A stretch of 34,387 nt of DNA, taken from the IMG/VR virus record IMGVR_UViG_3300045988_107065, one strand, 5' to 3'. Numbering within the stretch: the stretch's first letter is position 1; each line of letters opens with the position of its first letter. This DNA comes from a virus (Duplodnaviria > Heunggongvirae > Uroviricota > Caudoviricetes). The translations under genes were made by a program, and so were the position numbers. The notes below the pieces were generated by a model. That model did not search any database. It saw only the letters and a program-made list of their open reading frames with translations, and was not told where the DNA came from. Of the stretch, positions 768 through 34,387 are shown piece after piece.

Positions 768-871
768 GTTAAATCTCCAGATAGTCGCAGCACCCGTTGC
801 GCCGCATATCTGGTTATTCTATTACCTGAAAAACCACATATGGATAGAAAGACTATAAATACCAATAGATA

Positions 872-962: not shown

Positions 963-1220
963 ATGCAGCAGTATCACTATCCACTGGAAGACGGATTTAC
1001 CGAAAGGATTCACACGCCGGGAGGCGTCAGGTCACTGGTGGAGGGATCGCACTTGATGAAATTACTCCGGGATCTCGATAAGGATGGATTTAATGTCGAT
1101 GGCCCACTTGCCGAACTGACTGCACTGATTAACTACGTCACCAGCTCACAGATGTCTATGCAGGATCTGCAAACACATCTCGACTATTGTGCCGAACAAT
1201 TACGAAAACAAACCAGATAA
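963..1220 (+). CDS. Small protein (85 aa) homologous to the C-terminal domain of the adjacent Bro-N protein; candidate SOS-induced antirepressor
   Basis: ATG at 963 with GGAG 8 nt upstream (track ORF starts at an upstream TTG, 945); about 40% identity over about 75 aa with the C-terminus of the 1536-2231 product. Confidence 0.6.
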   Translation: MQQYHYPLEDGFTERIHTPGGVRSLVEGSHLMKLLRDLDKDGFNVDGPLAELTALINYVTSSQMSMQDLQTHLDYCAEQLRKQTR

Positions 1221-2231: not shown

Positions 2232-2303
2232 CGGGCGGCGGCACAGGGATGTGCCTTTAAATAATTCTGTACAGATTGCAGACTGTGGGTGAATAGCGTA
2301 CTA

Positions 2304-2318
2304 TTACCTTAAAGGTAA
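2304..2318. promoter_or_regulatory. TTACC-N5-GGTAA palindrome (site 3), abutting the SD of the following ORF
   Basis: ttaccTTAAAggtaa followed by AGGAGG. Confidence 0.45.
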
Positions 2319-2330
2319 AGGAGGCGCGAT

Positions 2331-2498
2331 ATGACAGCGTTGAAAAATCGTACTCAGCACAATGAACAAGCCAAGCAATGCTGGGATGTCATTGGAAAAG
2401 TTATGCTTGGCCGCGCAAGCAAAGAGCGCGACAAGGATATGGTTTACCAGACAGGAACATCTTTCAGCGACTTCAAGGCGGCATTTCGCTCCAAATAG
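2331..2498 (+). CDS. Small hypothetical protein (55 aa), below the ORF-track size cutoff
   Basis: ATG with AGGAGG at ideal spacing; MTALKNRTQHNEQAKQCWDVIGKVMLGRASKERDKDMVYQTGTSFSDFKAAFRSK. Confidence 0.5.
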   Translation: MTALKNRTQHNEQAKQCWDVIGKVMLGRASKERDKDMVYQTGTSFSDFKAAFRSK

Positions 2499-2518
2499 AA
2501 GCACATCAGGAGTTTTCC

Positions 2519-2959
2519 TTGAAGTTTAACATTAGAATATCTAATAGTTTTCTACATGGGGAAAGCAACACCCCTTTCGCTGTAGACGGACCTTTCCTTA
2601 CTGATGATGAAATAAAAATCATACAAAGTTTTTTAGAGGATGTTGCCAATGGAAGGGCGCTTGTTGGAAAAAACAAGCCCTCGTGGGTTGATGATAACCA
2701 TGATAAAATTCCCGGCTCAGACAATTATGAGCAAGAGAATTATTGGCATTATCATTGTGGGCCAACATGGTATCCAAACACATTTAAGAATTATACCATT
2801 AACTTAAATTTCAACCCTGGCGGAAGGCATTCTAATGAATGCATTCATTATGCAAAAAATGATAATGAAATTGTCATTGTTGGATTTTCAAGAGAACACA
2901 TACCTTTCCTTTCATCAGATGGAAACAACAATCCGCTTTTTAATGATGAAGAAGAATAG
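2519..2959 (+). CDS. Hypothetical protein (about 146 aa), AT-rich accessory gene
   Basis: Probable TTG start at 2519 with AGGAG 6 nt upstream; the track's upstream extension (2378) overlaps the small ORF in another frame. Confidence 0.55.
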   Translation: MKFNIRISNSFLHGESNTPFAVDGPFLTDDEIKIIQSFLEDVANGRALVGKNKPSWVDDNHDKIPGSDNYEQENYWHYHCGPTWYPNTFKNYTINLNFNPGGRHSNECIHYAKNDNEIVIVGFSREHIPFLSSDGNNNPLFNDEEE

Positions 2960-2979
2960 CCCGCGCTGCGGGCTTTTTT
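2959..2979 (+). terminator. Rho-independent terminator
   Basis: gcccg-cgctg-cgggc followed by TTTTTT, directly after the stop codon. Confidence 0.65.
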
Positions 2980-3051
2980 GTGGGCGAAACAAAAGTCAGT
3001 GCTACACTCATTGACGCCACATTGAGGTGGCTTATAGATGGAAATTTCACA

Positions 3052-3213
3052 ATGAAAAAAGCATTTGCTGCACTGTTCGTTTTGTTGTCTCTGGTAGCTT
3101 CAACTCAGGCCTTTGCCGGTCGTTGTCAGCACGACAGCGACACTGCTGCTGACGGCTCCCGCTGCGGTGGGCGTTCTGCGGATTCCCGTCCGGGCGGCGG
3201 TGGCATTCGTTAA
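3052..3213 (+). CDS. Small secreted protein (53 aa) with N-terminal signal peptide and Gly/Arg-rich tail
   Basis: MKKAFAALFVLLSLVASTQAFA signal-peptide-like N-terminus; weak RBS. Confidence 0.45.
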   Translation: MKKAFAALFVLLSLVASTQAFAGRCQHDSDTAADGSRCGGRSADSRPGGGGIR

Positions 3214-3218
3214 AAACA

Positions 3219-3237
3219 AGGCCGCGAAAGCGGCCTG
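3219..3237 (-). terminator. Hairpin/terminator downstream of the minus-strand gene 3250-3708
   Basis: ggccgc-gaaa-gcggcc; on the minus strand followed by a T-rich run (TTGTTTTT). Confidence 0.45.
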
Positions 3238-3249
3238 TGACATGTCACG

Positions 3250-3708
3250 CTACTTGCGAAATCTTTCTTTACCCTTCCAGCCAGTAGATGTTAGTTCAGG
3301 ATGAATGGTTCCCAATATAAAGCCAACCATAGCGGAGCGAGGATCTTCTATTTTATCCGTTAATTCTTCGGCATAACTCACAGGCAACCAAGCAACAAGA
3401 TCACCAATCCTCAGCTTTGGTCCTTTGCTGTAAGATGAATCGGCAATAACAAAAAATCCACCATCAGCTGAGCACACCTTCAGCATTGCCCTTTGTCTTC
3501 CAGAATCCAGCAAAACTGGCTGTTCCCCACTGGGACCAGGTATGATGATGGCTGGCATTGGTTTATTGGCTGAAAGGCTTGTGTCAAGATACTTACACGC
3601 ATACTCAAAAGCTGAAAAGTTATCCTTAAAGATAAGAGGTTGAATTTTATTGCTAACCTCCTTACCACCGATTAATCTGTTGATCATCTTCTTGAACATA
3701 AAGGTCAC
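3250..3708 (-). CDS. Hypothetical protein (152 aa)
   Basis: Long ORF in AT-rich island; no recognisable motif. Confidence 0.5.
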   Translation of the reverse strand: MTFMFKKMINRLIGGKEVSNKIQPLIFKDNFSAFEYACKYLDTSLSANKPMPAIIIPGPSGEQPVLLDSGRQRAMLKVCSADGGFFVIADSSYSKGPKLRIGDLVAWLPVSYAEELTDKIEDPRSAMVGFILGTIHPELTSTGWKGKERFRK

Positions 3709-3711
3709 CTA

Positions 3712-4152
3712 ATGATTAAGCCGATGCACGCTATTACAGCTACCGTTTTGTTTATCCTACCAATTTTTTCGTTTGCAAACGACATATGTTTTAAGAATTT
3801 AATAAATGAGGATATGTGTGCACATGCAAACAAAATTGCATCAGAAGCAGGAAAGTCTCTTCCCATAAAATTGAATGATAATATGTCTATTGTTTCAATA
3901 AATGCAATACTAAACAAACTTTTAGTTGTAGCGCATCTTAATTACAACAACAGCTATTTATCAAAAGTTTATAATGGTGATGTAACCTTAGAAAATAAAT
4001 TAAAGAGTGTAATGCGAAATTATTCAAAATCGAGCATTTGCTCCAACAGGCAAATGAAAGCATTTATTCACCTTGGCGGAGAGATTGAGTATAGGTATGT
4101 ATTTAGTGATGGCAATATATTTGATACATACGCCATCACTAATTGTGAATAG
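3712..4152 (+). CDS. Hypothetical secreted/periplasmic protein (146 aa) with signal peptide
   Basis: Hydrophobic N-terminus (AITATVLFILPIFSFA); AT-rich; stop codon abuts the stop of the convergent gene at 4153. Confidence 0.55.
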   Translation: MIKPMHAITATVLFILPIFSFANDICFKNLINEDMCAHANKIASEAGKSLPIKLNDNMSIVSINAILNKLLVVAHLNYNNSYLSKVYNGDVTLENKLKSVMRNYSKSSICSNRQMKAFIHLGGEIEYRYVFSDGNIFDTYAITNCE

Positions 4153-7100
4153 CTATTTCATCTGCTCTTCAACTTTATTTAGTAACGGTGATATCGCCCA
4201 CAGGTTCTGAAAAGGTAGCATTTTACGGACCGCGTGGGTTTGCTGGCTGTCAAATTCTCCGTTAAGTACACCATTCGCAACCGTCGCGGCATCACCGCCA
4301 AGATCAAAGGTAGGACCAAGTAAAGCACCAATAGCATTACGACTCTGAAACCTTGATACCGGAGGCGCACCAAACATCGCGCCAAGACCAAACCTACCGC
4401 CGCTTATGTTCTCAACGGTATTCAGCGGCTCAGAGAGCCAGCCAAGCATTCCGCCCCGGTCGATCCCCTCTTTCACAAGGTTATTCCAGCTGTAGTCGAT
4501 ATCGCGACCGCTTAACTTCTGTTTCATCATATAGACCATTGAGCCAAGCGCAATCGTGCCAAGCGCACCAAGATAGAATGCAGCATCGCCCTGCTGGATA
4601 CCAGATACTAGCACCCTGTTATGCTGTGCGAAGATAAACGTTTTGAACTGCGTGATCATCTTCCAGCCTTCTTTACTAAAAAACAGCGGTGTATCACCTA
4701 CGCCAGGCGTTACAATCACTGAGTCTACATCTTTCAGCACTGCAGACTGGAAAATCTCTCTAGCGAAACGGTCATCCCACAGATGACTATGCCCGGTTAA
4801 CAGCCCGTCCATATCCTCTCCGTGCTTCCCGAATTGCTCCCCGATTCGACGCAGAACATCTTCATTGATGCCGACCTGTGCCATCTTCCGCATTTCACTT
4901 TTGGAGAGCGTGCCACCAGCAGAAACTTGGCGAGCCGCGTCAAGTATCCTCGACTGCACTATCATCCCGGACCATGATTTAAGTGCGCTGTTCCACTGAT
5001 TCATCAGCGTCCAGTTACCGAATTTCTGCGTCATCCAGTTCAGACCTCGCTCAGCGGCGCTTCTCCGGCTATAGGGGTCAGTAAGATCCGCTATAGCCTT
5101 TGTACGCGTAGACAGGACATAATCAAGCCCAACGGCCATTTCTCGCAAATCCCTGGTTGCAATTTTCACTGAGTCCATATTTTTAAGCATGCTTACCATT
5201 GGTCCGAGAGATTTTCTCAGGCCATGCTGCATCATCGGTCGCATCAGATCAGTTGCAGCGGAGACAGTCATTCCACCAAGCAAACGGAGGAAGTTAATAT
5301 TCCTAGCAACTCGCCCGGCACGAACAAAGAAACTGCGTGGATCTTGAGGTGCGCCGTAAGTACCAAGCAGTCGATCACGCATAGCCGTAATATCCCTAAT
5401 ATCAGCCTCCCGTTGCTTCTCAAGAACTGCACGTCGTTTAGGTGTTTTAGCCTCTTTTATTAGCCGGGTATATTCCTCACTAACCTGACGGATTTGCTCC
5501 CCCATATCTTTACGGCCAAACTGCGCAGTCAGCTCAATTTCTGGTGCCACCTGCCGGAGATAACTTTCCATGATGTAGTTAACATCTGATTCAAGAAAAT
5601 CTTCTATACGCTCATCAGGAATAAGCAGCGTTCTGCTTTTAGTGAAACCAGCCCGACCAACGAGTCTCTCTGGGATAATATCGGCTGGTACAAGCCCGGA
5701 AGGTGCGCCTATTATTTTATTCACGATCTCGTCAGCAGCGTCCTCTGCTTCCTCTCGGGATAGAGGCTCCATCTGCTTCAGTGCTCGTTCGCGGCTTGCA
5801 TTCAGCCTTGTGGTTGAATTTGCCCGTTTTTGCAGTCGGCGAAGCTCAGAACGATATTTCCGTGGATTATCCAGCAACTCCATATGGCGCTGATAGACAG
5901 GAAGCTCACTCTTTGCCTGCGCTATATCATCAAGGCGTGTTTTAAGGTCAGAGCTTTCTTTCATCATTCTTGCCTGAAGTTTTTCTGATGAAGTCTCGGC
6001 CAACTCTTTTTCTATTCTTGTAAGACGCGCCTGTGTGTCAGTCTCCTGAGATATAAGCTTATTTCGTTTATCCAGTTCTTCCATGAGTAGAATTTTTTTA
6101 CCAGACCATTTCTCCGCTTCAGCGATTTCACTAGCGAGAGCATCAGCGCGCGGTGCTGATTCCTCTGCAGTTTTTAGCAATGAATTTATCTTTTCAATTC
6201 GCTTACCTGCTTTGTCAGCACCTTTGGCACTAATCCCTTGTATCCAGTTGGCAATTCGCCCTCTGAATTCAGTGCGGTCGGAAAGTATCTTATCGAACTT
6301 ATAAATGCGGGGAAGATAACTTTTCGCCGTCACGACATCGATATCCTCAGGAAGGATCCCCAGTTCCTGCATACGGGCTTTTGTGGTCTCAAAAATGGGG
6401 CGGATTCTGGCGGCTGCTTGTGAAACCTCAGGAATATCACTCTGATCACCACGGCGCATAGCCATGCCAACAGCTTCATTGAAATCAATAAAGCTCATCC
6501 TCTTCACGCCGCGGGCGCTGACAGATTTGCTGTACTGCTGGTAAGCATCACGAGTAGCTTCCATCTGCTTATAAAGCATGGCATCGTATTGCTTAATCTT
6601 AGTCTCGACTGCCGTAAACGTAGCCAACCCCTCATCATTTTTGGCGAAGAAATAGTTATTTTCGGCAAGCTGCTGGTTAATCTGACGGGAAACAAGAGAT
6701 GGTGATTGCGCCAAGCGGCCAGCAGGAGTGACACTCAACGTTTTGTTAGCAAGTCCAAGTCCAGCGAGCTGTTCCTGATCGAGTGTGGTATTGAAAACCT
6801 GAGCTGCACCAATGCTTTGAGGAGAATCCATACCTCGCAAATGATTACCTACTGAGTTAACCACTGCCTCGCGCGCGCTAGGTCCAGCAAGTAGCTGTGC
6901 ACCAGCACCAAGGATCCCACCAACGAGAGCATCAATAACAACGTTCGATACGCTCTCCATCGGTGAGCGAGCTTCCTGAGTGGCCTGTAATGCGGCTTCT
7001 GATACTCCCCCACCAGCAGCATTCGCCAAGGCAAAACGCCCTGCCGTCTCAGCAATACTTCCTCCACGCGCTACCGCCCCTACAGGGATGAACATTGCAG

Positions 7101-7542
7101 CCACATTAACCGGGTCTATCATTCCCATTGCTAAGCTTGAAATAGTACCAGCACCACCCATTTCAGATAGATATTCTCTATCTGTTCTTTGCTTATCGAT
7201 TCGATGTTTAATTGCCATTGTTTCTTCAGGCGAACCGGAGTTGATAAACGAATCTGCAAAATCTTCATAGCCTTTAATATCTGCTGCATCGTTATCAAAT
7301 GGGTTATATCCTTCAACCCTGTCAAACTGACTGAAAGGAGCACTGGCAATAAAACTACCCAGCGTGTTATCTATACGAAATGCTGCTTGTCTAGACCTTT
7401 GAACGCGTTGATCACTGCTAAATGGGTTCACAGCAGAAAGCAAAGAAGGTGTTTCCATATAGAAATTACTGTCATCAGGTGCTGCTATTTGCTGAATATC
7501 CTCGCCAAGCAACTCTTTAGGATCCTGTTCATATATCGGCAT
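4153..7542 (-). CDS. Large internal virion/ejection protein (1129 aa) with long coiled-coil region (T7 gp16-like position)
   Basis: Size, Gly-rich N-terminus, E/K/R-rich coiled-coil segment, position last in the structural operon; start overlaps upstream stop (TAATG). Confidence 0.55.
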   Translation of the reverse strand: MPIYEQDPKELLGEDIQQIAAPDDSNFYMETPSLLSAVNPFSSDQRVQRSRQAAFRIDNTLGSFIASAPFSQFDRVEGYNPFDNDAADIKGYEDFADSFINSGSPEETMAIKHRIDKQRTDREYLSEMGGAGTISSLAMGMIDPVNVAAMFIPVGAVARGGSIAETAGRFALANAAGGGVSEAALQATQEARSPMESVSNVVIDALVGGILGAGAQLLAGPSAREAVVNSVGNHLRGMDSPQSIGAAQVFNTTLDQEQLAGLGLANKTLSVTPAGRLAQSPSLVSRQINQQLAENNYFFAKNDEGLATFTAVETKIKQYDAMLYKQMEATRDAYQQYSKSVSARGVKRMSFIDFNEAVGMAMRRGDQSDIPEVSQAAARIRPIFETTKARMQELGILPEDIDVVTAKSYLPRIYKFDKILSDRTEFRGRIANWIQGISAKGADKAGKRIEKINSLLKTAEESAPRADALASEIAEAEKWSGKKILLMEELDKRNKLISQETDTQARLTRIEKELAETSSEKLQARMMKESSDLKTRLDDIAQAKSELPVYQRHMELLDNPRKYRSELRRLQKRANSTTRLNASRERALKQMEPLSREEAEDAADEIVNKIIGAPSGLVPADIIPERLVGRAGFTKSRTLLIPDERIEDFLESDVNYIMESYLRQVAPEIELTAQFGRKDMGEQIRQVSEEYTRLIKEAKTPKRRAVLEKQREADIRDITAMRDRLLGTYGAPQDPRSFFVRAGRVARNINFLRLLGGMTVSAATDLMRPMMQHGLRKSLGPMVSMLKNMDSVKIATRDLREMAVGLDYVLSTRTKAIADLTDPYSRRSAAERGLNWMTQKFGNWTLMNQWNSALKSWSGMIVQSRILDAARQVSAGGTLSKSEMRKMAQVGINEDVLRRIGEQFGKHGEDMDGLLTGHSHLWDDRFAREIFQSAVLKDVDSVIVTPGVGDTPLFFSKEGWKMITQFKTFIFAQHNRVLVSGIQQGDAAFYLGALGTIALGSMVYMMKQKLSGRDIDYSWNNLVKEGIDRGGMLGWLSEPLNTVENISGGRFGLGAMFGAPPVSRFQSRNAIGALLGPTFDLGGDAATVANGVLNGEFDSQQTHAVRKMLPFQNLWAISPLLNKVEEQMK

Positions 7543-10289
7543 TATTTGCCCCCTGCGTATATATTGCTCGGAAGGTTATTGGCTGAACCATAACCGAATG
7601 GCTTGGTCAGATCTGGAGGAGTATATCCATCTTTATTGCTGAACTGCGGCAGCGGATTGCCTTCTCTCCGCACTCTAGCTTCATCAACACGCTGTTGCTG
7701 GAACTGAATGGTTTGCCTGTACATTGGAGATGTCAGCTGATCCGGCTTGAAACGAACAGGGAGACCATTTTCTCCAATATAATTTCTAGGTTCTATCGCT
7801 CCGTTTGCGTCAGGCTGTAAAACCATAACAGCATAACTCCTATCCCTTGCCGTAAGGCCATCAGAAACAAGTATTAAGTCCGTATCACTGCGAGGACCGC
7901 CAAAGGATTTTGATTTAAGCTCGCGTTTTTCCTGCTCCCACTGCCCCTGTATCCAGTTACCAGCACCATTATTTACTCCGTACAATGCCTCAGGTGCATA
8001 CTTCATAACCTCTGCTTTGCCATTAACCGTAGAAACTCCCCAGGTGGTTCTGATCATGGCATTGGTCATTTTCTCAGCCTGTTCTGCATCGCCGCCTGTC
8101 TGTACAAAGTTAGCATCGTAAATTGTCTGGTAATCTCGCTGATAGGCCGCATTTGATTTTCCTGGATCGGTAATATCCGGAGACCACGAACCAAAGGAAG
8201 TCAGACTGCTGGCGTTATTTTGTGCAGCAGTTGCCCTCGCCGCGACATATTTTTTGTCTCGCATGGCAGTAGAAAGCATCTGTTTCATTCGGTCATCCTG
8301 TTGGAACACCTGGCTGTAAGCCATATCAACAGCCTTATCCTCCGGCACGCCAGCGCGGGAATAATCGTAAACCTTGCCGTAAAATGCCATCGTACTTTTA
8401 TCAAGTGTTGCCGCTGCCGCCGGATTATTATCGAATAACTGACCGTAGAATTTTGCCATCGGGACAACCAGCGCAGGATCTCTTGATGTTGCTCCACTGT
8501 TAAGCATTGTTTTAACCTGAGTTGGTATCATGCCGCTTTTAGTTGTGACGGTGACCAGTGTATTGATGCTCTGCGGATCAGATATGGAAAACGAAGGCGC
8601 GATATCCTGCGCGAAATAACGGTCTACCGCTGCCTGATTGTTTTTGTCGTTCGGGTCCAGCGGGAAGTTATTTTGCATTGAAGACACGAATCTGTTTCTT
8701 CCCTGCTGAATCTCCCACTCCCTATCCATCTCTTTAAATTTGGCCTGCATTTTCTCCCAGCGTTGCTGGTTAGCTGCAAATCCAGGAGCGTTTGGATCCT
8801 GTGGACGTAAACGTTCAAGAATGTCTTGTCGTCCTTCTGGAGTGAGGTCTTTAGCGGCACCAATGACACCTCCATATTGTATCTGCGCCTGCATATCCTT
8901 CCACTTCATAGCGCCAATGCGCGGACCATTGGCCCGGATAAAATCGTCCTCAGAAGGTAACTTCTCAGGTTTCAATCCTTCATCAAGGGCTGAATATGCA
9001 TCTTTAACTACAGTGCTAAGCTGGTCCGCATACTGCTGGCGGAACTGATTTCTCAGCTCATTAGCCTGCCTCAATGCCTGTATTTGCATTTGAGGGCTCA
9101 TAGCATCAAATGCCGCATTGCCCGTATAACGCTTAGGTGAATCAAGGTTAGTTAGACCAAGGGCTGCCGAGATACCAGTTTCAAGCTGTTCGGTGCTATA
9201 AGGCATACTGCCATTTTCGTGTTTAATAATCCCAGCACATAAAGCAGCTAGTGTCTTTGGGTTAGAGATATCAAGCTGATCATTCTCCCCAACACCAAGC
9301 TCACCACACAATGCCCTAATATAAGCATCAGTATTATTACCATCACTAGCCGGAGCATAGCGATTAACAATCTCGCTAACGGTGTCATAGCCTTGACGCT
9401 GGTAAGACAACATATTTTTACCCAACGCGCGGATTCCATGCTCAGGAGTAGCAAACGTTGCAAAACGCCCATCGCTACCGATCTGACCTTCCCACGGGTT
9501 AGATTTGCTCGCTTCAATATTACCAGGGTTATTATTACGTAAACCACGAGCATCCAATGAATTACCATGTGATATTGCACGACTCACACCATCAAGATCC
9601 CCTGGCTCTCCATTAACCTGAAGAAACTCGTTGTATTTTTGAGCGATATTTCCTATCCATGCTTGCTGCCCCATTTGTTCCTTGAGCTGAGTTTTCTGCT
9701 GAACACGCCACTCATCAGGAAGCCCATGCGCATCAGCGTATTGATCAATAGATTCAAATCGCTGCTTGGCTAAATCGACAAATGCTCGGTTATCGCTATA
9801 TAGCCCCGCAGACTGAGTGACAGCCAATGCATTTCCTGACAAATACGTTTGATCTTGGAATTGCTGAAACTGCCCAACTTCATATCGACGTGCCTGATTG
9901 TAATAAGACTGCATAGACTGCTGGAGTTGAAAGGATAATTTATTCCTTTCCTCACTTTCAGGAATTGAGCCTAATAATGCCTGAGCCCTTTCCTGCATAT
10001 TTTTCATAACAGCGTCACTCAGACCAAGAGCGTTTTTACCCTGTTTAGAAATCAGCCCATTTTCAGGGTTGTTAATCTGGTCATCTGCAAATTGGTTAAA
10101 TTGCAGTAACGCCTCCTGTGCCATAGCAACATTCGCTTTCTGCCTGGCTTCACCATATGCCACCGCATACTGATCTGCGACATTCGCCAGCACCTGACCT
10201 GCCTGAGGAACATCGAAGGTCTGAAAACCACCGGTTTGCACACCACGACTTTGCACCTGGCGTCCGGATGTAGTAGGAACAACAGGCAT
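7542..10289 (-). CDS. Large internal virion protein (915 aa; T7 gp15-like position)
   Basis: Size and position; contains a conserved-looking segment NNPGNIEASKSNPWEGQIG...FATFATPEHGIRALGKN whose function I cannot assign with certainty. Confidence 0.5.
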   Translation of the reverse strand: MPVVPTTSGRQVQSRGVQTGGFQTFDVPQAGQVLANVADQYAVAYGEARQKANVAMAQEALLQFNQFADDQINNPENGLISKQGKNALGLSDAVMKNMQERAQALLGSIPESEERNKLSFQLQQSMQSYYNQARRYEVGQFQQFQDQTYLSGNALAVTQSAGLYSDNRAFVDLAKQRFESIDQYADAHGLPDEWRVQQKTQLKEQMGQQAWIGNIAQKYNEFLQVNGEPGDLDGVSRAISHGNSLDARGLRNNNPGNIEASKSNPWEGQIGSDGRFATFATPEHGIRALGKNMLSYQRQGYDTVSEIVNRYAPASDGNNTDAYIRALCGELGVGENDQLDISNPKTLAALCAGIIKHENGSMPYSTEQLETGISAALGLTNLDSPKRYTGNAAFDAMSPQMQIQALRQANELRNQFRQQYADQLSTVVKDAYSALDEGLKPEKLPSEDDFIRANGPRIGAMKWKDMQAQIQYGGVIGAAKDLTPEGRQDILERLRPQDPNAPGFAANQQRWEKMQAKFKEMDREWEIQQGRNRFVSSMQNNFPLDPNDKNNQAAVDRYFAQDIAPSFSISDPQSINTLVTVTTKSGMIPTQVKTMLNSGATSRDPALVVPMAKFYGQLFDNNPAAAATLDKSTMAFYGKVYDYSRAGVPEDKAVDMAYSQVFQQDDRMKQMLSTAMRDKKYVAARATAAQNNASSLTSFGSWSPDITDPGKSNAAYQRDYQTIYDANFVQTGGDAEQAEKMTNAMIRTTWGVSTVNGKAEVMKYAPEALYGVNNGAGNWIQGQWEQEKRELKSKSFGGPRSDTDLILVSDGLTARDRSYAVMVLQPDANGAIEPRNYIGENGLPVRFKPDQLTSPMYRQTIQFQQQRVDEARVRREGNPLPQFSNKDGYTPPDLTKPFGYGSANNLPSNIYAGGK

Positions 10290-10864
10290 CAGTAACCTCC
10301 TATTTTGAATCGGGAGTCAGAATTCATAAAACCTGAGTTAGATAGCATTGGCGTCCCACCACCAGATGTACTTCCTTTAGAGAACGGACTCCACGTCCCA
10401 CCAAACATCTGGTACGCACCGTATGCCTTCAGAGGCGCGGTGAGCAATGTTGTTGCTGCTCCCACATTCCCCTGTTTACGGGCTGAACTGGCTTCTGCTT
10501 TATAGTTGGCAGCCTGAACCTGATAACCGTAAGCCTCGCGTTGCGCGTTATTCACCGTCGTCAGCGAATCAAGAGCGCCAAACTGGGCTGTGTCGCCAAA
10601 TATATCCAGCGCGTTACCTGTAGATAAATCAGCGCCGGTAGCCCCCATTGTCGCCGCCTGTGTACCAAGCCGCTGTCGGGTCTCTCTGCGCCGTTGCTCA
10701 GCTTCAGCGTTACCTCTGTTTATTGCATCATTTGCCTGAGCTGTGGCTATATCTGCGTTCGCTTCTGCAACCTTCGAGGCATACTTTCCCTGTTGGTACT
10801 GGGTGTATGCCTGAATGCCACTCATGGCGAGCATTGCACCACCAGCAATAACCGGATCGCACAT
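10289..10864 (-). CDS. Internal virion protein (191 aa; T7 gp14-like position), Ala/Gly/Gln-rich
   Basis: Position and composition. Confidence 0.4.
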   Translation of the reverse strand: MCDPVIAGGAMLAMSGIQAYTQYQQGKYASKVAEANADIATAQANDAINRGNAEAEQRRRETRQRLGTQAATMGATGADLSTGNALDIFGDTAQFGALDSLTTVNNAQREAYGYQVQAANYKAEASSARKQGNVGAATTLLTAPLKAYGAYQMFGGTWSPFSKGSTSGGGTPMLSNSGFMNSDSRFKIGGY

Positions 10865-19487: not shown

Positions 19488-19577
19488 ATCAATGACTCCG
19501 TACGCAATTAAATTATTACCAATTTAACCACATATGATTTATTTATCGTAGACAGTTGACATTTAACGCACGAATTA

Positions 19578-19592
19578 TTACCTTTCAGGTAA
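19578..19592. promoter_or_regulatory. TTACC-N5-GGTAA palindrome (site 4) just downstream of a TTGACA hexamer (19556-19561)
   Basis: attaccTTTCAggtaag. Confidence 0.45.
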
Positions 19593-19914
19593 GCAAATGG
19601 TTCATTCCGGTTATTAACCTGACTGGCTTGTCGTTAAATTGAACAGGTGGAGTGAGCTTTTATTTTGAGCAGTACGGCGTATGGCACATGCGCCGATAGC
19701 GGTCTGGATACGTTTAAGGGGCACCCTCCCTTGCTCGGGCAAACGAACCAGGTAGCCGGAATGTGCAAGTCGAGCGGTTTTATTCCGCGCACGGGGATTC
19801 ACCATCCCGGCGATTCGGTGTGACGCCTCGGAAGAGACGAGGGTACAACGATGAGAGCATTTATGGAGCCGCGACAAAGTGTGGCGCCTTAACAGGCTAA
19901 GTGCTCTCAGCGTT

Positions 19915-22112: not shown

Positions 22113-22705
22113 TGATTACCATCCTGACGTTCTTTGAGTCGCTTCCTGGCTGCCGCTATGCGATCAGCAATTGTCACATTCACATTAACATCCAGGCGTT
22201 CTTTGAATGCGTTGACGTCGACGTGCTTACCAATCAGTTCGAGGTTCTTCACCTTGTCAGGCCATTTAATTTTTTTGAGGATTGTCTCTATCGAATCCTC
22301 GTTCATGTTCATGATGGTCGATGACAGATCAAAGCCACTAAGCGTAGTGCGCCAGATTTTCGGCCACTCACGGATTGGTTTAAGGCTCCCATCGTCGTTG
22401 AGGATATCGATCACGTCCATCTGGTCGATCTCCACCAGGCGCATGAGAACGTAATCAGCACTGACGCGCATTCGTTTGTTGCGCTCCTCCATCAACTCGG
22501 CAATCCGTTTTTGAATGCGTTCATCGCGCATCATGACACTGGCTTTAACTGCCGCTGTATTTGGGGAGAATCCTGCGTTAATCGCTGCCTGAGTCTGGTT
22601 TTCAGGCGTTTTGATGTATGACTGGCAATAAGCCTCCTGCATTGCTGTGAGCGGCTTAAATTGCGTTGATTTGCGTTTATAGGTTTTAGGTTCAGCAGGC
22701 ATCAT
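22109..22705 (-). CDS. Terminase small subunit
   Basis: Conserved small-terminase N-terminal region (AYCQSYIKTP...AAINAGFSPNTAAVKASVMMRDERIQ); probable ATG at 22705 (track ORF extends to a TTG at 22783). Confidence 0.75.
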   Translation of the reverse strand: MMPAEPKTYKRKSTQFKPLTAMQEAYCQSYIKTPENQTQAAINAGFSPNTAAVKASVMMRDERIQKRIAELMEERNKRMRVSADYVLMRLVEIDQMDVIDILNDDGSLKPIREWPKIWRTTLSGFDLSSTIMNMNEDSIETILKKIKWPDKVKNLELIGKHVDVNAFKERLDVNVNVTIADRIAAARKRLKERQDGNQ

Positions 22706-22823
22706 AACCACCGTGGTAATAGTTACCGTTGTGGTAATAGTACCATGCAAAATAAAGCCGCCATAGTTGGCGGCAGTATTCAAAACCCATCAAATTCATC
22801 ATGCATAATCTACTCGTAACATG

Positions 22824-24396: not shown

Positions 24397-24950
24397 TTTT
24401 GCTCACCTTCCTGTTCTTCCAGAAAAATACGCATAGCCTCAAGCATCTCTTCGGTGTCATACGGAGACAGCTTGTCACGCAGGATGTGTTCAATGCTGTT
24501 AATGAACTTTCGGATTGCTTTGCGTTCAATTTCAGTCAGGAAAGCATCGGTGGCTGGAATGGGCTTTTGTGGTGATATAGCAATGCGAATTGTCTCAAGG
24601 TCTGGATCTGTTTCCGCTGCTGGAACCTTGATATAACCCATCTGCACCCCATTCATGATGAACCTGCGACGGTCATCACATATCGCCTTAAGCCCCGCAT
24701 TCTCCGCTGCCAGCTCCGAAAACTTCTCGTGTGCCAACTTAACAGCCGAATCAGCCTGCTTAATTGACTCAATCGCTTTCTGCTGGTCTTCGGCCAGCGC
24801 ATTAGCACGCACCAGTTGCACTTCCAGTTGCGTTGCCAAATCGCTGAGCAGCTTTGCCACACTACGCATATCAACGGCACCACATTCAGCTTTCAGTTCC
24901 GAAGCCATCTCATGCCCGGCGGCAACTAACCCTTTGATATTACTTTCCAT
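24393..24950 (-). CDS. Hypothetical coiled-coil protein (185 aa)
   Basis: Heptad-rich sequence; 4 nt overlap with downstream gene. Confidence 0.4.
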   Translation of the reverse strand: MESNIKGLVAAGHEMASELKAECGAVDMRSVAKLLSDLATQLEVQLVRANALAEDQQKAIESIKQADSAVKLAHEKFSELAAENAGLKAICDDRRRFIMNGVQMGYIKVPAAETDPDLETIRIAISPQKPIPATDAFLTEIERKAIRKFINSIEHILRDKLSPYDTEEMLEAMRIFLEEQEGEQK

Positions 24951-25973: not shown

Positions 25974-25988
25974 TTACCTCTGAGGTAA
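25974..25988. promoter_or_regulatory. TTACC-N5-GGTAA palindrome (site 5), overlapping the RBS of the 25617-25970 gene
   Basis: atttaccTCTGAggtaatt. Confidence 0.45.
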
Positions 25989-26035
25989 TTAAAAACCACA
26001 TAAGACACGAAATCAATAGAGTTTAGAATATTTTG

Positions 26036-26050
26036 TTACCCTACAGGTAA
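26036..26050. promoter_or_regulatory. TTACC-N5-GGTAA palindrome (site 6)
   Basis: gttaccCTACAggtaatt. Confidence 0.45.
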
Positions 26051-27700: not shown

Positions 27701-27901
27701 TCAGCTTGAGTGTTGTGGGGAGGAATTAATCATGATCTGCTTAATCTCTGCCCTGATGCGACGGTTTGATTCCATGGTGCACTCAACACAGTGTCCGTTG
27801 TAAACCCAGCGTTCACTGTCATGTCCGTGCTTACATGGTTTTCCGGTGTAGTAGCGTTTAAGTCCGCGCTTTGCGGCATCAATACGTGTAATGATTTCCA
27901 T
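27701..27901 (-). CDS. Small Cys/His-rich putative zinc-ribbon protein (about 67 aa)
   Basis: GKPCKHGH...GHCVEC motif; ATG at 27901 (track ORF extends upstream). Confidence 0.4.
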   Translation of the reverse strand: MEIITRIDAAKRGLKRYYTGKPCKHGHDSERWVYNGHCVECTMESNRRIRAEIKQIMINSSPQHSS

Positions 27902-27981
27902 GGTAAGCCCTGTTATTAGTATTGGGATTACGGTTATTTTGTGCTGACACAAAAAAAAGATCAACCATATTTGGTTTTTTA

Positions 27982-27996
27982 TTACCTTTGAGGTAC
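27982..27996. promoter_or_regulatory. TTACC-N5-GGTAC palindrome (site 7, one mismatch)
   Basis: attaccTTTGAggtacg. Confidence 0.35.
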
Positions 27997-28051
27997 GAAT
28001 AGATATGAAAAGACCGCCGGATGGCGGTCTACAGAGGGTTGTGGCTGGATA

Positions 28052-28282
28052 TCATGAGTAGAAGAAGTATGCCAGTTCTGCTTTTGAGCGCAGCCATTGT
28101 CTTGATTTACAGGCTTTAAAAAGCCCATCCATCAATACCTTACCTGGCATTTTGCGCTTACCTGTTAAGTGAGTCTGGATATAGTGACTCGTCGTTCCGG
28201 CTTCCTGTGCGAAGGCTTCACGCTCATCCGGAGTAAGTGCAAGCCAGTGCTTTTTGAAATCGAAATGTCCGTTATCGCTCAT
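28052..28282 (-). CDS. Cro-like HTH DNA-binding protein (76 aa)
   Basis: HTH segment EAGTTSHYIQTHLTGKRKMP resembles Cro/YdaS-type HTH; first gene of the minus-strand operon, divergent from the repressor. Confidence 0.6.
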   Translation of the reverse strand: MSDNGHFDFKKHWLALTPDEREAFAQEAGTTSHYIQTHLTGKRKMPGKVLMDGLFKACKSRQWLRSKAELAYFFYS

Positions 28283-28318
28283 AGCTATTGCCTGATATTT
28301 ATTTCAGATAATAAATAT

Positions 28319-28381
28319 TCACCTATAAGGTAACAAAAATCAAGGATAGTTACCCATGAGGTGCATTTACCTGTTGGGTAA
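28319..28381. promoter_or_regulatory. Divergent promoter/operator region with three adjacent palindromic sites (two imperfect, one perfect TTACC-N5-GGTAA)
   Basis: tcaccTATAAggtaa (28319-28333), ttaccCATGAggtgc (28350-28364), ttaccTGTTGggtaa (28367-28381) between the divergent cro-like and repressor genes. Confidence 0.55.
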
Positions 28382-28436
28382 TATTGCTTTAAATTGAATC
28401 ATCTTCTGATTCAGATATGAGGCGATTTTCCAGAAA

Positions 28437-29021
28437 ATGAAAAGTATCCAGGACGTCCGCAGGCAAAATCTCAACGACTTGATCGACCGTGAATTCAATG
28501 GTGTTCAGACGCGGATGGCTGAAAAACTTGGAACTCAGGCAAATCTGGTAAACCGCTGGGCTCTTGGCAAGAAGGTTATCGGCGACCAGGTTGCGCGAAA
28601 AATTGAAGCTGCCGCCAATAAACCCCGTAACTGGCTTGATATCGATCGCTCGCTTTCTCAGGAAGGTTTTCAGCCTGTCGGACCAAGCGACATTGGTCAA
28701 CTGGCGGCTCACAACCTGGAACGCTGGATGAGCGAAAGCCGCGACCTTTCAACGCAGGGAAAACTTCACCGCGCATCCGGCGTCGCCCAGGTGACAATCA
28801 GCCGCCTGTTAAACAATGAGGTCAGCGTTTCCATTTCCACCCTGGAGAATGTTGCATCCGCATTCGGGCGTCACGGCTATGAATTACTGATTCACCCGCA
28901 CGACCCTGCGACTATCAACTATGACCGCTCGCGCTACGCTTTGTTACCCGAAACCGAGAAAGCAAAGATCGAAAGTTACATTGAATTTGTCATCAACCAG
29001 AACGAAAAAAACAAACAATAA
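28437..29021 (+). CDS. Repressor-like protein with two tandem XRE-type HTH domains and no peptidase domain
   Basis: Two HTH-like segments (QTRMAEKLGTQANLVNRW; ASGVAQVTISRLLNNE); no Ser/Lys S24 autocleavage motifs seen. Confidence 0.65.
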   Translation: MKSIQDVRRQNLNDLIDREFNGVQTRMAEKLGTQANLVNRWALGKKVIGDQVARKIEAAANKPRNWLDIDRSLSQEGFQPVGPSDIGQLAAHNLERWMSESRDLSTQGKLHRASGVAQVTISRLLNNEVSVSISTLENVASAFGRHGYELLIHPHDPATINYDRSRYALLPETEKAKIESYIEFVINQNEKNKQ

Positions 29022-29041
29022 AATCATATTTTTCAGTAAGT

Positions 29042-29067
29042 AAGCCGCCTTCTGGCGGCTTTTTTAT
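29042..29067 (+). terminator. Rho-independent terminator after the repressor gene
   Basis: aagccgcc-ttct-ggcggctt followed by TTTT. Confidence 0.65.
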
Positions 29068-29078
29068 TGCCTGTTCGA

Positions 29079-29093
29079 TTACCTAACGGGTAA
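29079..29093. promoter_or_regulatory. TTACC-N5-GGTAA palindrome (site 9)
   Basis: gattaccTAACGggtaatt. Confidence 0.45.
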
Positions 29094-29140
29094 TTTTTTT
29101 AACTCATATCTATTGACATCAAACCATATACGCATAATTA

Positions 29141-29155
29141 TTACCTCAACGGTAA
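29141..29155. promoter_or_regulatory. TTACC-N5-GGTAA palindrome (site 10) immediately downstream of a TTGACA (29113-29118) promoter-like element
   Basis: attaccTCAACggtaac. Confidence 0.5.
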
Positions 29156-29174
29156 CAGACCGAGGTAACAAGTT

Positions 29175-29327
29175 ATGCAGTGGAAAATCATCAACGGTTG
29201 GTACTGCGTTACTGCATGCGGATTCATGAGCTGGAAGTTCCGCACCTTACAGGAAGGCATTAAATGGGCTTTCGTCAGCAAAGAAGCTCGCGATGTGGCC
29301 AACGATAACGAGATATGGGAGGGCTGA
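29175..29327 (+). CDS. Small hypothetical protein (50 aa), first ORF of the plus-strand early operon
   Basis: ATG with GAGGTAA RBS; hydrophobic/aromatic-rich; below the track cutoff. Confidence 0.4.
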   Translation: MQWKIINGWYCVTACGFMSWKFRTLQEGIKWAFVSKEARDVANDNEIWEG

Positions 29328-32929: not shown

Positions 32930-34180
32930 TTATTCCCCCGCCATCCATTTCTCAAACTTCGACGGGGAGAACGGAATCAGATCCGTATGCTCCCCGTCAA
33001 TCCAGGAATCAATCATATCGGCCCACTGCTGCAACATGTAGGCGCGCTGTCTGGCGTATTCCGCTTTGTTATATACGGCGCGCACACCTTTCTGCTCATG
33101 TGCCAGAGCCTTTTCAATCCAGTCTGAAGGATAACCAGCCTCATGCAATAACGTACTGGCTGTACGGCGCATATCGTGTACGGTGAAATCCTGAATATGC
33201 TCACCATCTTCATTTATTATTTTCACCGTTCTGTCGATCAGAGAGTTCAGCGCGGCATTAGATAATGGCTTCCGGAAATTGTAACGACCAGGAACCAGAT
33301 ATTCACTTCCACCAGCGCACATCTGCAACCCGACCAATATATCCTGAGCCTGTTTAGGCAGGTAAATAACATGCGCCCGGCTTCCCTTCATGCGGTCTGA
33401 AGGAATTGTCCATGTCCATTTTTTAAAATCTATTTCATCCCACGTTGCATTGGTGAATTCGCCCTTACGAACCATAGTGATAAGCACCAGTTTTAAAGCC
33501 ATTTTCATAGTGCCCATAGCACCAATGGCATCCAACGTGCGGAAGAACAGGCCAATTTCTTCTGGTGTCAGTGTTCGCTCTCGTGGTTTAAATATGGCGA
33601 TAGACGAAGGCTTAATGTCAGCCGCAGGATTAAACAAACCATGACCACGGTCATTGGCGTGACGGTATACGCTGCTGATGATCTCCCTGGCCTGCACTGC
33701 TGTTGCCCGGCCACCGCGTTCGACAATCCGGTCACACAAATCACGAACCATCGATGTGGTAATTTCAGCCATCATTTTGTTGCCAAGAACCGGAAGTATG
33801 TCACGGTCGATCACTGCCTGCTTCATTGCGCGGGTACTTTCAGCCAGGATGACGTGTTTCATATAACTGTCGGTATGTACCGCAAACGTTTCGGCACCAC
33901 GAATCTTTTTGATACCGTCACGTTTAGCCGCAGCCGGTGACTGGCCTGCTTTAAGCAGCTTCTTTGCAGCAATCAGTTCTTCCCGCGCTTCTGCCAGGCT
34001 GATACCGTCACGCCCATACTGCCCGATTACCAGTGTTTCGCGGCGACCGTTGATACGGTAGTCATAACGAAATGAGACCGTGCCTGACGTAAGCACAGCT
34101 ACATACAGCCCGTCACGATCGGAGACCTTGTACAGTTTGTCCTGCGGCTTGAGGTTTTTTAATTTTGTATCGGTAAGCAC
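32930..34180 (-). CDS. int: Tyrosine integrase, P4-type (N-terminal arm-binding domain plus catalytic domain)
   Basis: N-terminal MLTDTKLKNLKP...GLYVAV...FRYDYR arm-binding motif; C-terminal HDMRRT...VRAVYNKAEY with catalytic Tyr. Confidence 0.9.
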   Translation of the reverse strand: MLTDTKLKNLKPQDKLYKVSDRDGLYVAVLTSGTVSFRYDYRINGRRETLVIGQYGRDGISLAEAREELIAAKKLLKAGQSPAAAKRDGIKKIRGAETFAVHTDSYMKHVILAESTRAMKQAVIDRDILPVLGNKMMAEITTSMVRDLCDRIVERGGRATAVQAREIISSVYRHANDRGHGLFNPAADIKPSSIAIFKPRERTLTPEEIGLFFRTLDAIGAMGTMKMALKLVLITMVRKGEFTNATWDEIDFKKWTWTIPSDRMKGSRAHVIYLPKQAQDILVGLQMCAGGSEYLVPGRYNFRKPLSNAALNSLIDRTVKIINEDGEHIQDFTVHDMRRTASTLLHEAGYPSDWIEKALAHEQKGVRAVYNKAEYARQRAYMLQQWADMIDSWIDGEHTDLIPFSPSKFEKWMAGE

Positions 34181-34222: not shown

Positions 34223-34237
34223 ATACCTTTAAGGTAA
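34223..34237. promoter_or_regulatory. ATACC-N5-GGTAA palindrome (site 11, one mismatch) upstream of the integrase gene
   Basis: atacctTTAAggtaat. Confidence 0.4.
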
Positions 34238-34326: not shown

Positions 34327-34387
34327 GAGTTGGCATCTGAGTAGGAATGATTTGCTATGAGTTAGCTGTTAATCATTCCCACTCAAT

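Follow-up and report, generated by a model that had tools for sequence, protein, structure and literature searches.

A gap of 154 bp lies between two divergent genes in the window, the whole stretch of 34,387 nucleotides analysed here. The gap is bounded by an ORF on the minus strand (28052-28282) and an ORF on the plus strand (28437-29021), and it holds three palindromes of one family, which we refer to as sites A, B and C. The features of this region are as follows.

28011-28030, minus strand: terminator-like hairpin after the Cro-like gene
28052-28282, minus strand: Cro-like small HTH gene, 76 aa, homologue of phiV10 gp41 and epsilon15 gp39
28319-28333: predicted operator A, TCACCTATAAGGTAA, 1 mismatch to TTACC-N5-GGTAA
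28350-28364: predicted operator B, TTACCCATGAGGTGC, 2 mismatches to TTACC-N5-GGTAA
28367-28381: predicted operator C, TTACCTGTTGGGTAA, perfect TTACC-N5-GGTAA
28437-29021, plus strand: repressor gene rep, 194 aa, with homology to PDB 5D50_A
29042-29061, plus strand: terminator-like hairpin after rep

The distance from A to B is 31 bp and that from B to C is 17 bp, counted from start to start and likewise between centres. The initial annotation had proposed three sites of the same palindrome family, two degenerate and one perfect, about 31 and 17 bp apart at their centres, between divergent Cro-like and repressor genes. We find all three palindromes at the coordinates listed above, with 1, 2 and 0 mismatches for A, B and C. 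Recomputing the spacing gives the same values, and the flanking products are a PHROG 35 protein on the leftward side and a Rep homologue on the rightward side.

We count 10 exact copies of the motif in the window, compared with 0.02 expected, and 0 of 100 shuffles reach 10 copies; with up to 2 mismatches, 36 copies are present, compared with 9.95 expected. These counts, set against expectation and shuffles, rule out a chance origin of the motif. Site B taken alone is not significant in the window, and its register is kept in six related phages.

From 27800 to 29300, the sequence shares 98.5% identity with Escherichia phage phiV10, which belongs to the epsilon15-like podophages (genus Uetakevirus). 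Across most matching segments, the nucleotide identity between the window and phiV10 is 96-98%, and it is lower (89%) in the segment from ant to the tail fibre. The gene order around the immunity region is the same as in phiV10, on an epsilon15-like backbone with conserved synteny, and the window is largely collinear with phiV10 in reversed orientation. The terminus of the window is the reverse complement of the attP core attgagtgggaatgatt, which has been reported for phiV10, epsilon15 and ZX5. Because the window ends in a phiV10-type attP core, it holds most of an integrated prophage. These comparisons identify the window as a phiV10-like (epsilon15-like, Uetakevirus) prophage.

The product of the rightward gene aligns with Rep of Salmonella phage SPC32H (PDB 5D50_A) at an E value of 4e-42, from residues 1-190 of the query to residues 2-197 of the chain, with 42% identity. 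Its Pfam matches are HTH-type families only, and no Peptidase_S24 domain is detected in Rep by Pfam at E <= 0.01. According to secondary sources, SPC32H Rep contacts DNA through its N-terminal domain, dimerises through a middle domain and forms tetramers through a C-terminal domain, which is also where the antirepressor binds; the tetramer binds palindromic DNA, with the paired DNA-binding domains coming from different dimers. SPC32H Rep is described as non-cleavable, with the antirepressor Ant inactivating the tetramer and ant being under LexA control. By homology, Rep of the window is predicted to carry an N-terminal HTH, a second HTH-like domain for dimerisation, and a C-terminal domain for tetramerisation and Ant binding. 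Its predicted recognition helix, NLVNRW, is invariant wherever the half-site is TTACC. A Rep identical in sequence has been overexpressed in phage ZX5, where it abolished free phage and blocked lytic growth, and the mRNAs of holin and endolysin went down by more than 99.9%.

The leftward 76-aa protein matches PHROG 35, ‘transcriptional repressor’, at an E value of 8.7e-13. Its HTH-like segment, AGTTSHYIQ.HLT, is invariant across six phages. ‘Cro-like’ appears to be a fair label for this protein.

The palindrome extends far beyond the gap. The other members of the family are listed below, together with the antirepressor gene ant, its SOS box and the early-right promoter.

872-886: predicted operator, perfect, between the divergent tail-fibre and ant genes; its epsilon15 equivalent, 19895-19911, is annotated as repressor-binding
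924-942: SOS (LexA) box, TACTGTATAAATATACAGT, directly upstream of ant
963-1220, plus strand: small antirepressor gene ant, 85 aa, matching PDB 5D50_E
1252-1266: predicted operator, perfect, ahead of the Bro-N/Ant-like fusion gene
2304-2318: predicted operator, perfect, 12 nt before the small ORF 2331-2498
19578-19592: predicted operator, perfect, in a long non-coding stretch before the head-gene block; its epsilon15 equivalent, 2931-2947, is annotated as repressor-binding
22705-22719 (1 mismatch) and 22723-22737 (perfect): predicted tandem operators, 18 bp apart
25974-25988: predicted operator, perfect, 3 nt before the gp45 start codon, downstream member of a 62-bp pair
26036-26050: predicted operator, perfect, upstream member of the gp45 62-bp pair, after the terminator of the replication operon
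27982-27996: predicted operator, 1 mismatch, just past the Cro-like gene's terminator, ahead of gp42 and the replication genes
29079-29093: predicted operator, perfect, upstream member of the 62-bp pair flanking the early-right promoter
29113-29141, plus strand: predicted early-right promoter TTGACA-17-AATTAT (10/12), for gp39, gp38 and recE/recT
29141-29155: predicted operator, perfect, centred near +1 of the early-right promoter
34223-34237: predicted operator, 1 mismatch, 43 nt before the integrase start at 34180 (minus strand)

The product of ant aligns with PDB 5D50_E, ‘Anti-repressor protein’, at an E value of 4e-47 over 83 residues, with about 85% identity as counted from the alignment. 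The SOS box has a perfect CTGT-N8-ACAG core, occurs once in the window and ends 20 nt before the ATG of ant. A second antirepressor, in which a Bro-N domain is fused to an Ant-like C-terminus, is encoded at 1536-2231. The operator ahead of it begins at the last -10 base of a promoter-like TTGCAA-17-TATATT (1224-1252).

The window contains 14 sites with at most one mismatch. All of them are non-coding when the start of terS is placed at 22702, the point where homology to epsilon15 terS begins, and only about 7% of the window is non-coding in our ORF map. The 10 exact copies are likewise all non-coding and locate at the heads of transcription units. The symmetrised consensus of the sites is aTTACC-W5-GGTAAt. 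In each of the window, phiV10 and epsilon15, 14-15 sites are spread over about 10 intergenic regions, and the palindrome heads most of the transcription units: ant/tail fibre, bro-ant, head genes, terS, gp45, replication, early-right and int. Since the same palindrome stands ahead of most transcription units, the repressor appears to act genome-wide.

Two geometries recur among the sites. Tandems of 17-18 bp are formed by B and C and by the terS pair, which locates directly upstream of the terS start at 22702 (minus strand) and downstream of a terminator, and recurs in phiV10 (87, 105) and epsilon15 (12, 30). Pairs of 62 bp are formed by 29079/29141 and 25974/26036. The spacing of the early-right pair is 62 bp in Enterobacter phages Tyrion and BUCT554, in SPC32H and in epsilon15, and 63 bp in Klebsiella phage BUCT711. 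The site at 27982 has a counterpart in Tyrion, BUCT554, BUCT711 and SPC32H. Meanwhile, a second conserved element, the 12-mer AAACCACATATG, accompanies the operators and may be a candidate site for a co-factor.

We aligned the gap of six phages: the window, Tyrion, BUCT554, BUCT711, SPC32H and epsilon15. The repressors of the five relatives are 42-78% identical to that of the window. Sites A, B and C are all in register in 6/6 phages; B and C are 17 bp apart in every case, A and B 30 or 31 bp. In site A the ACC and GGT cores do not vary among the six, in site B the same is true of TTACC and GGT, and C is both invariant and perfect throughout; the half-sites hold while the N5 spacers and the flanks diverge. 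In five of the six, one or other half of A is of the TCACC type; in BUCT711, site A has two mismatches and no TCACC-type variant. Site B is degenerate only in the phiV10/Tyrion/BUCT554 clade and is perfect in the epsilon15/SPC32H/Klebsiella clade.

A similar picture is seen at close range. We took the best 80 IMG/VR contigs of one repressor scan, all of which encode an identical repressor, as a polymorphism set. Within 28319-28381, the only variable positions in these best 80 contigs are 28324, 28355, 28356, 28357 and 28359. All five belong to the N5 spacer of A or B, none of the half-site bases varies, and beyond C the polymorphism restarts only at 28405. At the level of sequence, variation confined to N5 is the signature of a protein-binding site, the ‘degenerate’ half-sites included. 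With regard to distant relatives of Rep, this viral-contig scan gave only 100% identical copies among its best 80 matches, which made it of no use for covariation.

The conserved blocks of the gap also contain two putative back-to-back promoters, whose elements are predicted as follows.

28315-28320, minus strand: predicted leftward -10, GAATAT, 17 nt from TTGATT
28338-28343, minus strand: predicted leftward (lytic, gp41) -35, TTGATT
28366-28371, plus strand: predicted repressor -35, TTTACC, with the left half of C inside
28390-28395, plus strand: predicted repressor -10, TAAATT, in a conserved TTwAATTkA block

The block AAAAATCAA (28335-28343; alignment columns A66-A74), which holds TTGATT, is invariant in 6/6 phages, and so is TTTACCT at the predicted repressor -35. 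Site A fills the predicted leftward spacer and overlaps the predicted -10 by 2 bp. The spacer between TTTACC and TAAATT in the predicted repressor promoter is 18 nt. Both promoters are weak by consensus match (8/12 for the leftward and about 7/12 for the repressor promoter), with hexamers that are conserved and suitably placed. In the Psychrobacter phage pOW20-A, where the hexamers are better, the leftward equivalent is TTGACT-17-TATTAT, with an operator-like site in the spacer, and the equivalent at the repressor gene is TTTACC-17-CATAAT in the same arrangement. A promoter scan of the window yielded promoter-like sites at a frequency not enriched over shuffled sequence, so the promoter calls in the gap rest on conservation and on the analogy with pOW20-A. 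An alternative leftward promoter, TTGTTA-17-TATTAT (28336-28308), was discarded, as neither of its hexamers is conserved in the epsilon15 clade.

Should these calls hold, transcription would start near 28308 on the minus strand and near 28402 on the plus strand. Site A would then be centred at about -18 of the predicted lytic promoter; relative to the predicted repressor promoter, the centres would be at about -28 for C, -45 for B and -76 for A. We notice that, for a prophage in constant need of repressor, a perfect operator on the predicted -35 of the repressor gene itself is an odd arrangement.

We propose, with a probability of about 0.8, that A, B and C are Rep operators of a phiV10-like podophage, with Rep as the presumed binder. 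In the six aligned phages, the HTH segments of Rep and of the Cro-like protein are both invariant, so covariation in this set cannot decide on the binder. Two more distant genomes are informative in this respect. In Pseudomonas phage PseuP_224, an S24-type CI shares 39% identity with Rep in its N-terminal domain, and the sites have the form TTACC-N4-GGTAA, of which the divergent gap holds three and the region beyond cI another two; the leftward 76-aa protein of this phage has no detectable similarity to gp41. The N-terminal domain of the pOW20-A CI is also 39% identical to that of Rep (E 1e-13), and TACC-N5-GGTA sites are found at 1698, 1715 and 1748 (17 and 33 bp apart), with two more beyond cI; this phage also encodes a gp41 homologue. 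The TACC half-site thus goes together with the Rep-type DNA-binding domain whether or not gp41 is present, and on the evidence of these two genomes, PseuP_224 and pOW20-A, Rep is favoured as the binder. The three-site layout is kept in these relatives with an S24-type CI, which points to a real and old OR-like module.

It is conceivable that the Cro-like gp41, or another phage or host factor, is the main protein to recognise the palindromes in place of Rep. The invariance of the gp41 HTH in the same six phages leaves gp41 and Rep inseparable by covariation there, and pOW20-A retains a gp41 homologue as well as the TACC-N5-GGTA sites. In PseuP_224, however, TTACC half-sites occur with a Rep-type N-terminal domain next to a leftward protein that lacks detectable similarity to gp41. 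Moreover, a repressor that maintains lysogeny accounts better than a Cro for sites before int, ant, terS and the head genes, and the epsilon15 record assigns the motif to the repressor. To our knowledge, no host regulator has a TTACC-N5-GGTAA consensus. We regard a main binder other than Rep as improbable, although the invariant gp41 HTH suggests that the Cro-like protein may share A, B and C. In an RNA-level role, the inverted repeats would form hairpins that serve processing, termination or the control of translation, instead of being DNA sites for a protein. Such a role would accord with the sites at 25974, 22705 and 2304, which abut start codons, and with the joint folding of B and C into a hairpin of -16.8 kcal/mol (z = -4.2). 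Single sites, by contrast, fold weakly (-2 to -6.4 kcal/mol, z -0.7 to -2.3), the half-sites are invariant without covariation, and the natural variants TCACC and GGTGC break the pairing. The extended B+C stem is not conserved in relatives, the A/B/C cluster locates upstream of both predicted transcription starts, and Rfam gives no match above threshold. Together, these points leave the RNA explanation with very little probability.

If Rep is the binder, the manner in which the cluster works has to be considered. The initial annotation had drawn a parallel to lambda OR1-OR2-OR3, of which one part stands: as at lambda OR, three palindromes lie between divergent repressor and Cro-like genes and overlap two predicted back-to-back promoters, and further sites in the window on the far side of the repressor gene resemble lambda OL. 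A strict lambda bistable switch would go further, with Rep and the Cro-like protein competing with opposite affinity orders, an activating middle site and a weak repressor-proximal site. Along with the layout between the divergent genes, this version could draw on the three sites kept in S24-type CI relatives and on the position of B near -45 of the predicted repressor promoter, close to that of lambda OR2, which is centred at -42 of PRM. The other part of the parallel is not supported. With the perfect site C over the predicted repressor -35, the apparent order of strengths runs opposite to that of lambda, the best-matching site being on the repressor-promoter side. In 6/6 phages it is the repressor-proximal site that is perfect, and B is the weakest in the phiV10 clade by consensus match, where the mismatch count is a crude proxy for affinity. 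The spacing also differs, being 31 and 17 bp in the window and 24 and 23 bp in lambda OR. In place of the self-cleaving S24 repressor of a lambda-type switch, Rep has no cleavage domain and is predicted to work as a tetramer that is removed by an antirepressor. Finally, the sites are prophage-wide and include operators at the late, int and ant regions, unlike those of lambda. We therefore consider a strict lambda switch unlikely.

Taking A, B and C as Rep operators, we infer from the layout the occupancy of the sites, tetramer sharing, looping and the sign of autoregulation, in addition to the promoter positions and the binder itself, and propose the following course of events. In the lysogen, Rep tetramers on A would block the leftward lytic promoter, which serves the Cro-like gene and then the replication genes; as A locates in the leftward spacer and -10 region, Rep bound there would block RNA polymerase. 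On B and C, over or just upstream of the repressor -35, Rep would hold down its own synthesis, and the two sites may share one Rep tetramer. Site B, at about -45, could also help polymerase at the repressor promoter. At the early-right promoter, Rep would sit on operators at about -62 and +1 and hold the promoter between them, and it would also occupy the sites before int, both antirepressor genes, terS, the head genes and gp45. The cluster in the divergent gap would accordingly be one node of a prophage-wide set of about 15 operators. The geometry of the 62-bp pairs bracketing a promoter would suit bridging by a single Rep tetramer. Upon DNA damage, LexA would be removed from the ant promoter; Rep itself would not be cleaved in the SOS response, and the small antirepressor Ant would instead pull it off the DNA, stripping all sites together.

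We further speculate, as a tentative and rather doubtful extension, that the Uetakevirus repressor silences the whole prophage through an operator geometry matched to the tetramer with its two pairs of DNA-binding domains (17-18 bp tandems, 62-bp pairs and lone sites), with an affinity order inverse to that of lambda. With such a fixed geometry, lone sites after terminators may act as roadblocks or loop anchors, and the best operator on the repressor's own -35 would clamp the repressor concentration low. If true, a repressor clamped low could explain the high spontaneous induction that has been reported for ZX5 lysogens.

The cluster is the orthologue of the SPC32H/epsilon15 Rep operators and belongs to an already-studied phage family. 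The operator set is partly annotated in the public record, and it is no new kind of regulatory system. A full-text literature search, with the primary SPC32H and epsilon15 papers outside its scope, found nothing relevant on the motif or on Uetakevirus operators. Several aspects may be undocumented: the conserved 31 + 17 bp triple between the divergent genes, a best site that falls on the predicted repressor promoter, the 62-bp pairs bracketing promoters, and the persistence of the layout in S24-type CI relatives.

The phiV10-like prophages are very common in E. coli, as the best 80 IMG/VR contigs all have an identical repressor, and phiV10 is in use as a reporter and typing phage for O157. Of the mapped operators, three are in the gap, one follows the Cro-like gene, two are at the early-right promoter and about nine elsewhere. 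The map provides targets for footprinting or ChIP and for the engineering of inducible or non-inducible derivatives, and it allows testing of how a tetrameric repressor released by an antirepressor arranges DNA.

The closest known system is the Rep-Ant-LexA immunity system of SPC32H, which was reportedly described by Kim & Ryu in 2013 and Kim et al. in 2016 and to which PDB entries 5D50 and 5D4Z belong. The window shares with SPC32H the full-length Rep homology, the absence of an S24 domain, the Ant homologue, the LexA box before ant, and the same gene order. SPC32H itself has a TTACC-N5-GGTAA triple in the same layout (L004, positions 1385, 1415 and 1432). Three differences are seen: the two Rep proteins share only 42% identity, site B is perfect in SPC32H but degenerate in phiV10 and its clade, and the window carries the second antirepressor, the Bro-N/Ant-like fusion, behind its own predicted operator.

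The genome paper of epsilon15 reportedly gives a 17-bp consensus, ATTACCWDWWNGGTAAT, which the window consensus aTTACC-W5-GGTAAt matches. The initial annotation had called the half-site novel, but the epsilon15 RefSeq record already carries the motif as 7 features labelled ‘protein_bind, repressor’, an annotation that is itself a prediction. In this record, NC_004775 (Kropinski et al., 2007), the motif is identical to ours, and 7/7 annotated sites are motif matches at equivalent intergenic positions. The record leaves unannotated the gap sites at 33341, 33358 and 33388, as well as those at 24704 and 35969. The records of phiV10, SPC32H, Tyrion, BUCT554 and BUCT711 contain no operator annotation.

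The dispersal of the sites resembles that of P1 C1 and of the ‘stoperators’ of mycobacteriophage L5/L1 gp71, in which many sites are distributed over the prophage, including past terminators and directly before coding regions. In the window, copies likewise locate beyond the immunity region. The stoperators of L5/L1 are asymmetric according to the abstract of PMC1934351. In contrast to the asymmetric sites of P1 C1 and L5 gp71, those of the window are symmetric palindromes of 15-17 bp rather than asymmetric oriented sites, and the proteins are unrelated.

The CI systems of pOW20-A and PseuP_224 share with the window a homologous N-terminal HTH, TACC-type half-sites, three sites in the gap, and two beyond the repressor gene. 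They differ in the C-terminal LexA-like autopeptidase of CI and, in PseuP_224, in the N4 spacer. The distal pair is 25-26 bp apart in pOW20-A and PseuP_224, compared with 62 bp in the window.

The antirepressor side of the immunity system locates at the left of the window, where two genes and one regulatory site were recognized.

924-942, SOS (LexA) box whose core is perfect, the single copy in the window, directly 5' of ant
963-1220, ant, homologue of the SPC32H antirepressor gene
1536-2231, second antirepressor-like gene, a Bro-N domain fused to an Ant-like C-terminal segment

Ant is approximately 85% identical to SPC32H Ant (counted by hand on the alignment), whereas the repressor, its expected target, is just 42% identical. 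The C-terminal segment of the Bro-N fusion shows homology with small Ant (PHROG 450, residues 148-229). Upstream of this gene we observed a promoter-like TTGCAA-17-TATATT, immediately followed by a perfect operator at 1252-1266.

Comparing the window with phiV10 by blastn revealed no match longer than 150 bp across 2243-10382, with flanks 89-98% identical. Within this stretch, small ORFs of unassigned function lie on the + strand shortly 3' of the operator at 2304.

2331-2498, +, small ORF
2378-2959, +, small ORF
2980-3213, +, small ORF
3712-4152, +, small ORF

These ORFs may form a cargo (moron) cluster controlled by the repressor.

The longest terS ORF, which corresponds to the phiV10 annotation, begins 27 codons (window 22702-22783) 5' of the onset of epsilon15 terS homology. 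The true start is likely at 22702 on the - strand, in which case the tandem operators at 22705-22737 would be non-coding and adjoin the start codon.

Besides the operators, a second recurrent element, the 12-mer AAACCACATATG, occurs 9 times in the window with up to 2 mismatches, against 3.45 matches expected. Seven of the nine copies are no more than 70 nt away from the centre of an operator, in DNA that makes up only 4.7% of the window, and the 12-mer is likewise associated with operators in epsilon15. Some copies stand 4 nt off a TTACC or GGTAA half-site, or within a promoter spacer.

Copies of AAACCACATATG
Window: 831-842, 19525-19536, 25993-26004, 29121-29132, 1210-1221, 27966-27977 (-), 805-816 (-)
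epsilon15: 2988, 19940, 24751, 33748, 35953

In the divergent gap, operators B and C jointly form a larger inverted repeat (28346-28385), which folds as RNA at -16.8 kcal/mol (z = -4.2). The added pairing uses spacer bases that are not conserved among relatives, and the larger repeat is therefore probably incidental.

Within the repressor gene, we notice short direct repeats approximately 190-295 nt apart (28458-28476 and 28753-28771; 28525-28539 and 28713-28727), and Pfam gives HTH-type matches in each half of the protein. Both features are consistent with an ancient internal duplication of an HTH module.

The last bases of the window (34371-34387) are the attP core attgagtgggaatgatt in reverse complement; this core has been reported for phiV10, epsilon15 and ZX5, which integrate at the 3' end of guaA. 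The window's edge is thus a prophage-host junction.

Two distant relatives, Pseudomonas phage PseuP_224 and Psychrobacter phage pOW20-A, have an N-terminal domain of the Rep type and TACC-type palindromes in common with the window. The layout is shared as well: three of the sites lie in the divergent gap and two past the repressor gene.

PseuP_224, 1722-1774 and 2597-2636, TACC-type palindromes
pOW20-A, 1698-1760 and 816-853, TACC-type palindromes

Unlike Rep, however, their CI repressors are LexA-like (S24). Since palindromes, N-terminal domain and layout are common to these phages, the module of operator and DNA-binding domain appears to predate the swap between self-cleaving and antirepressor-controlled C-terminal domains.
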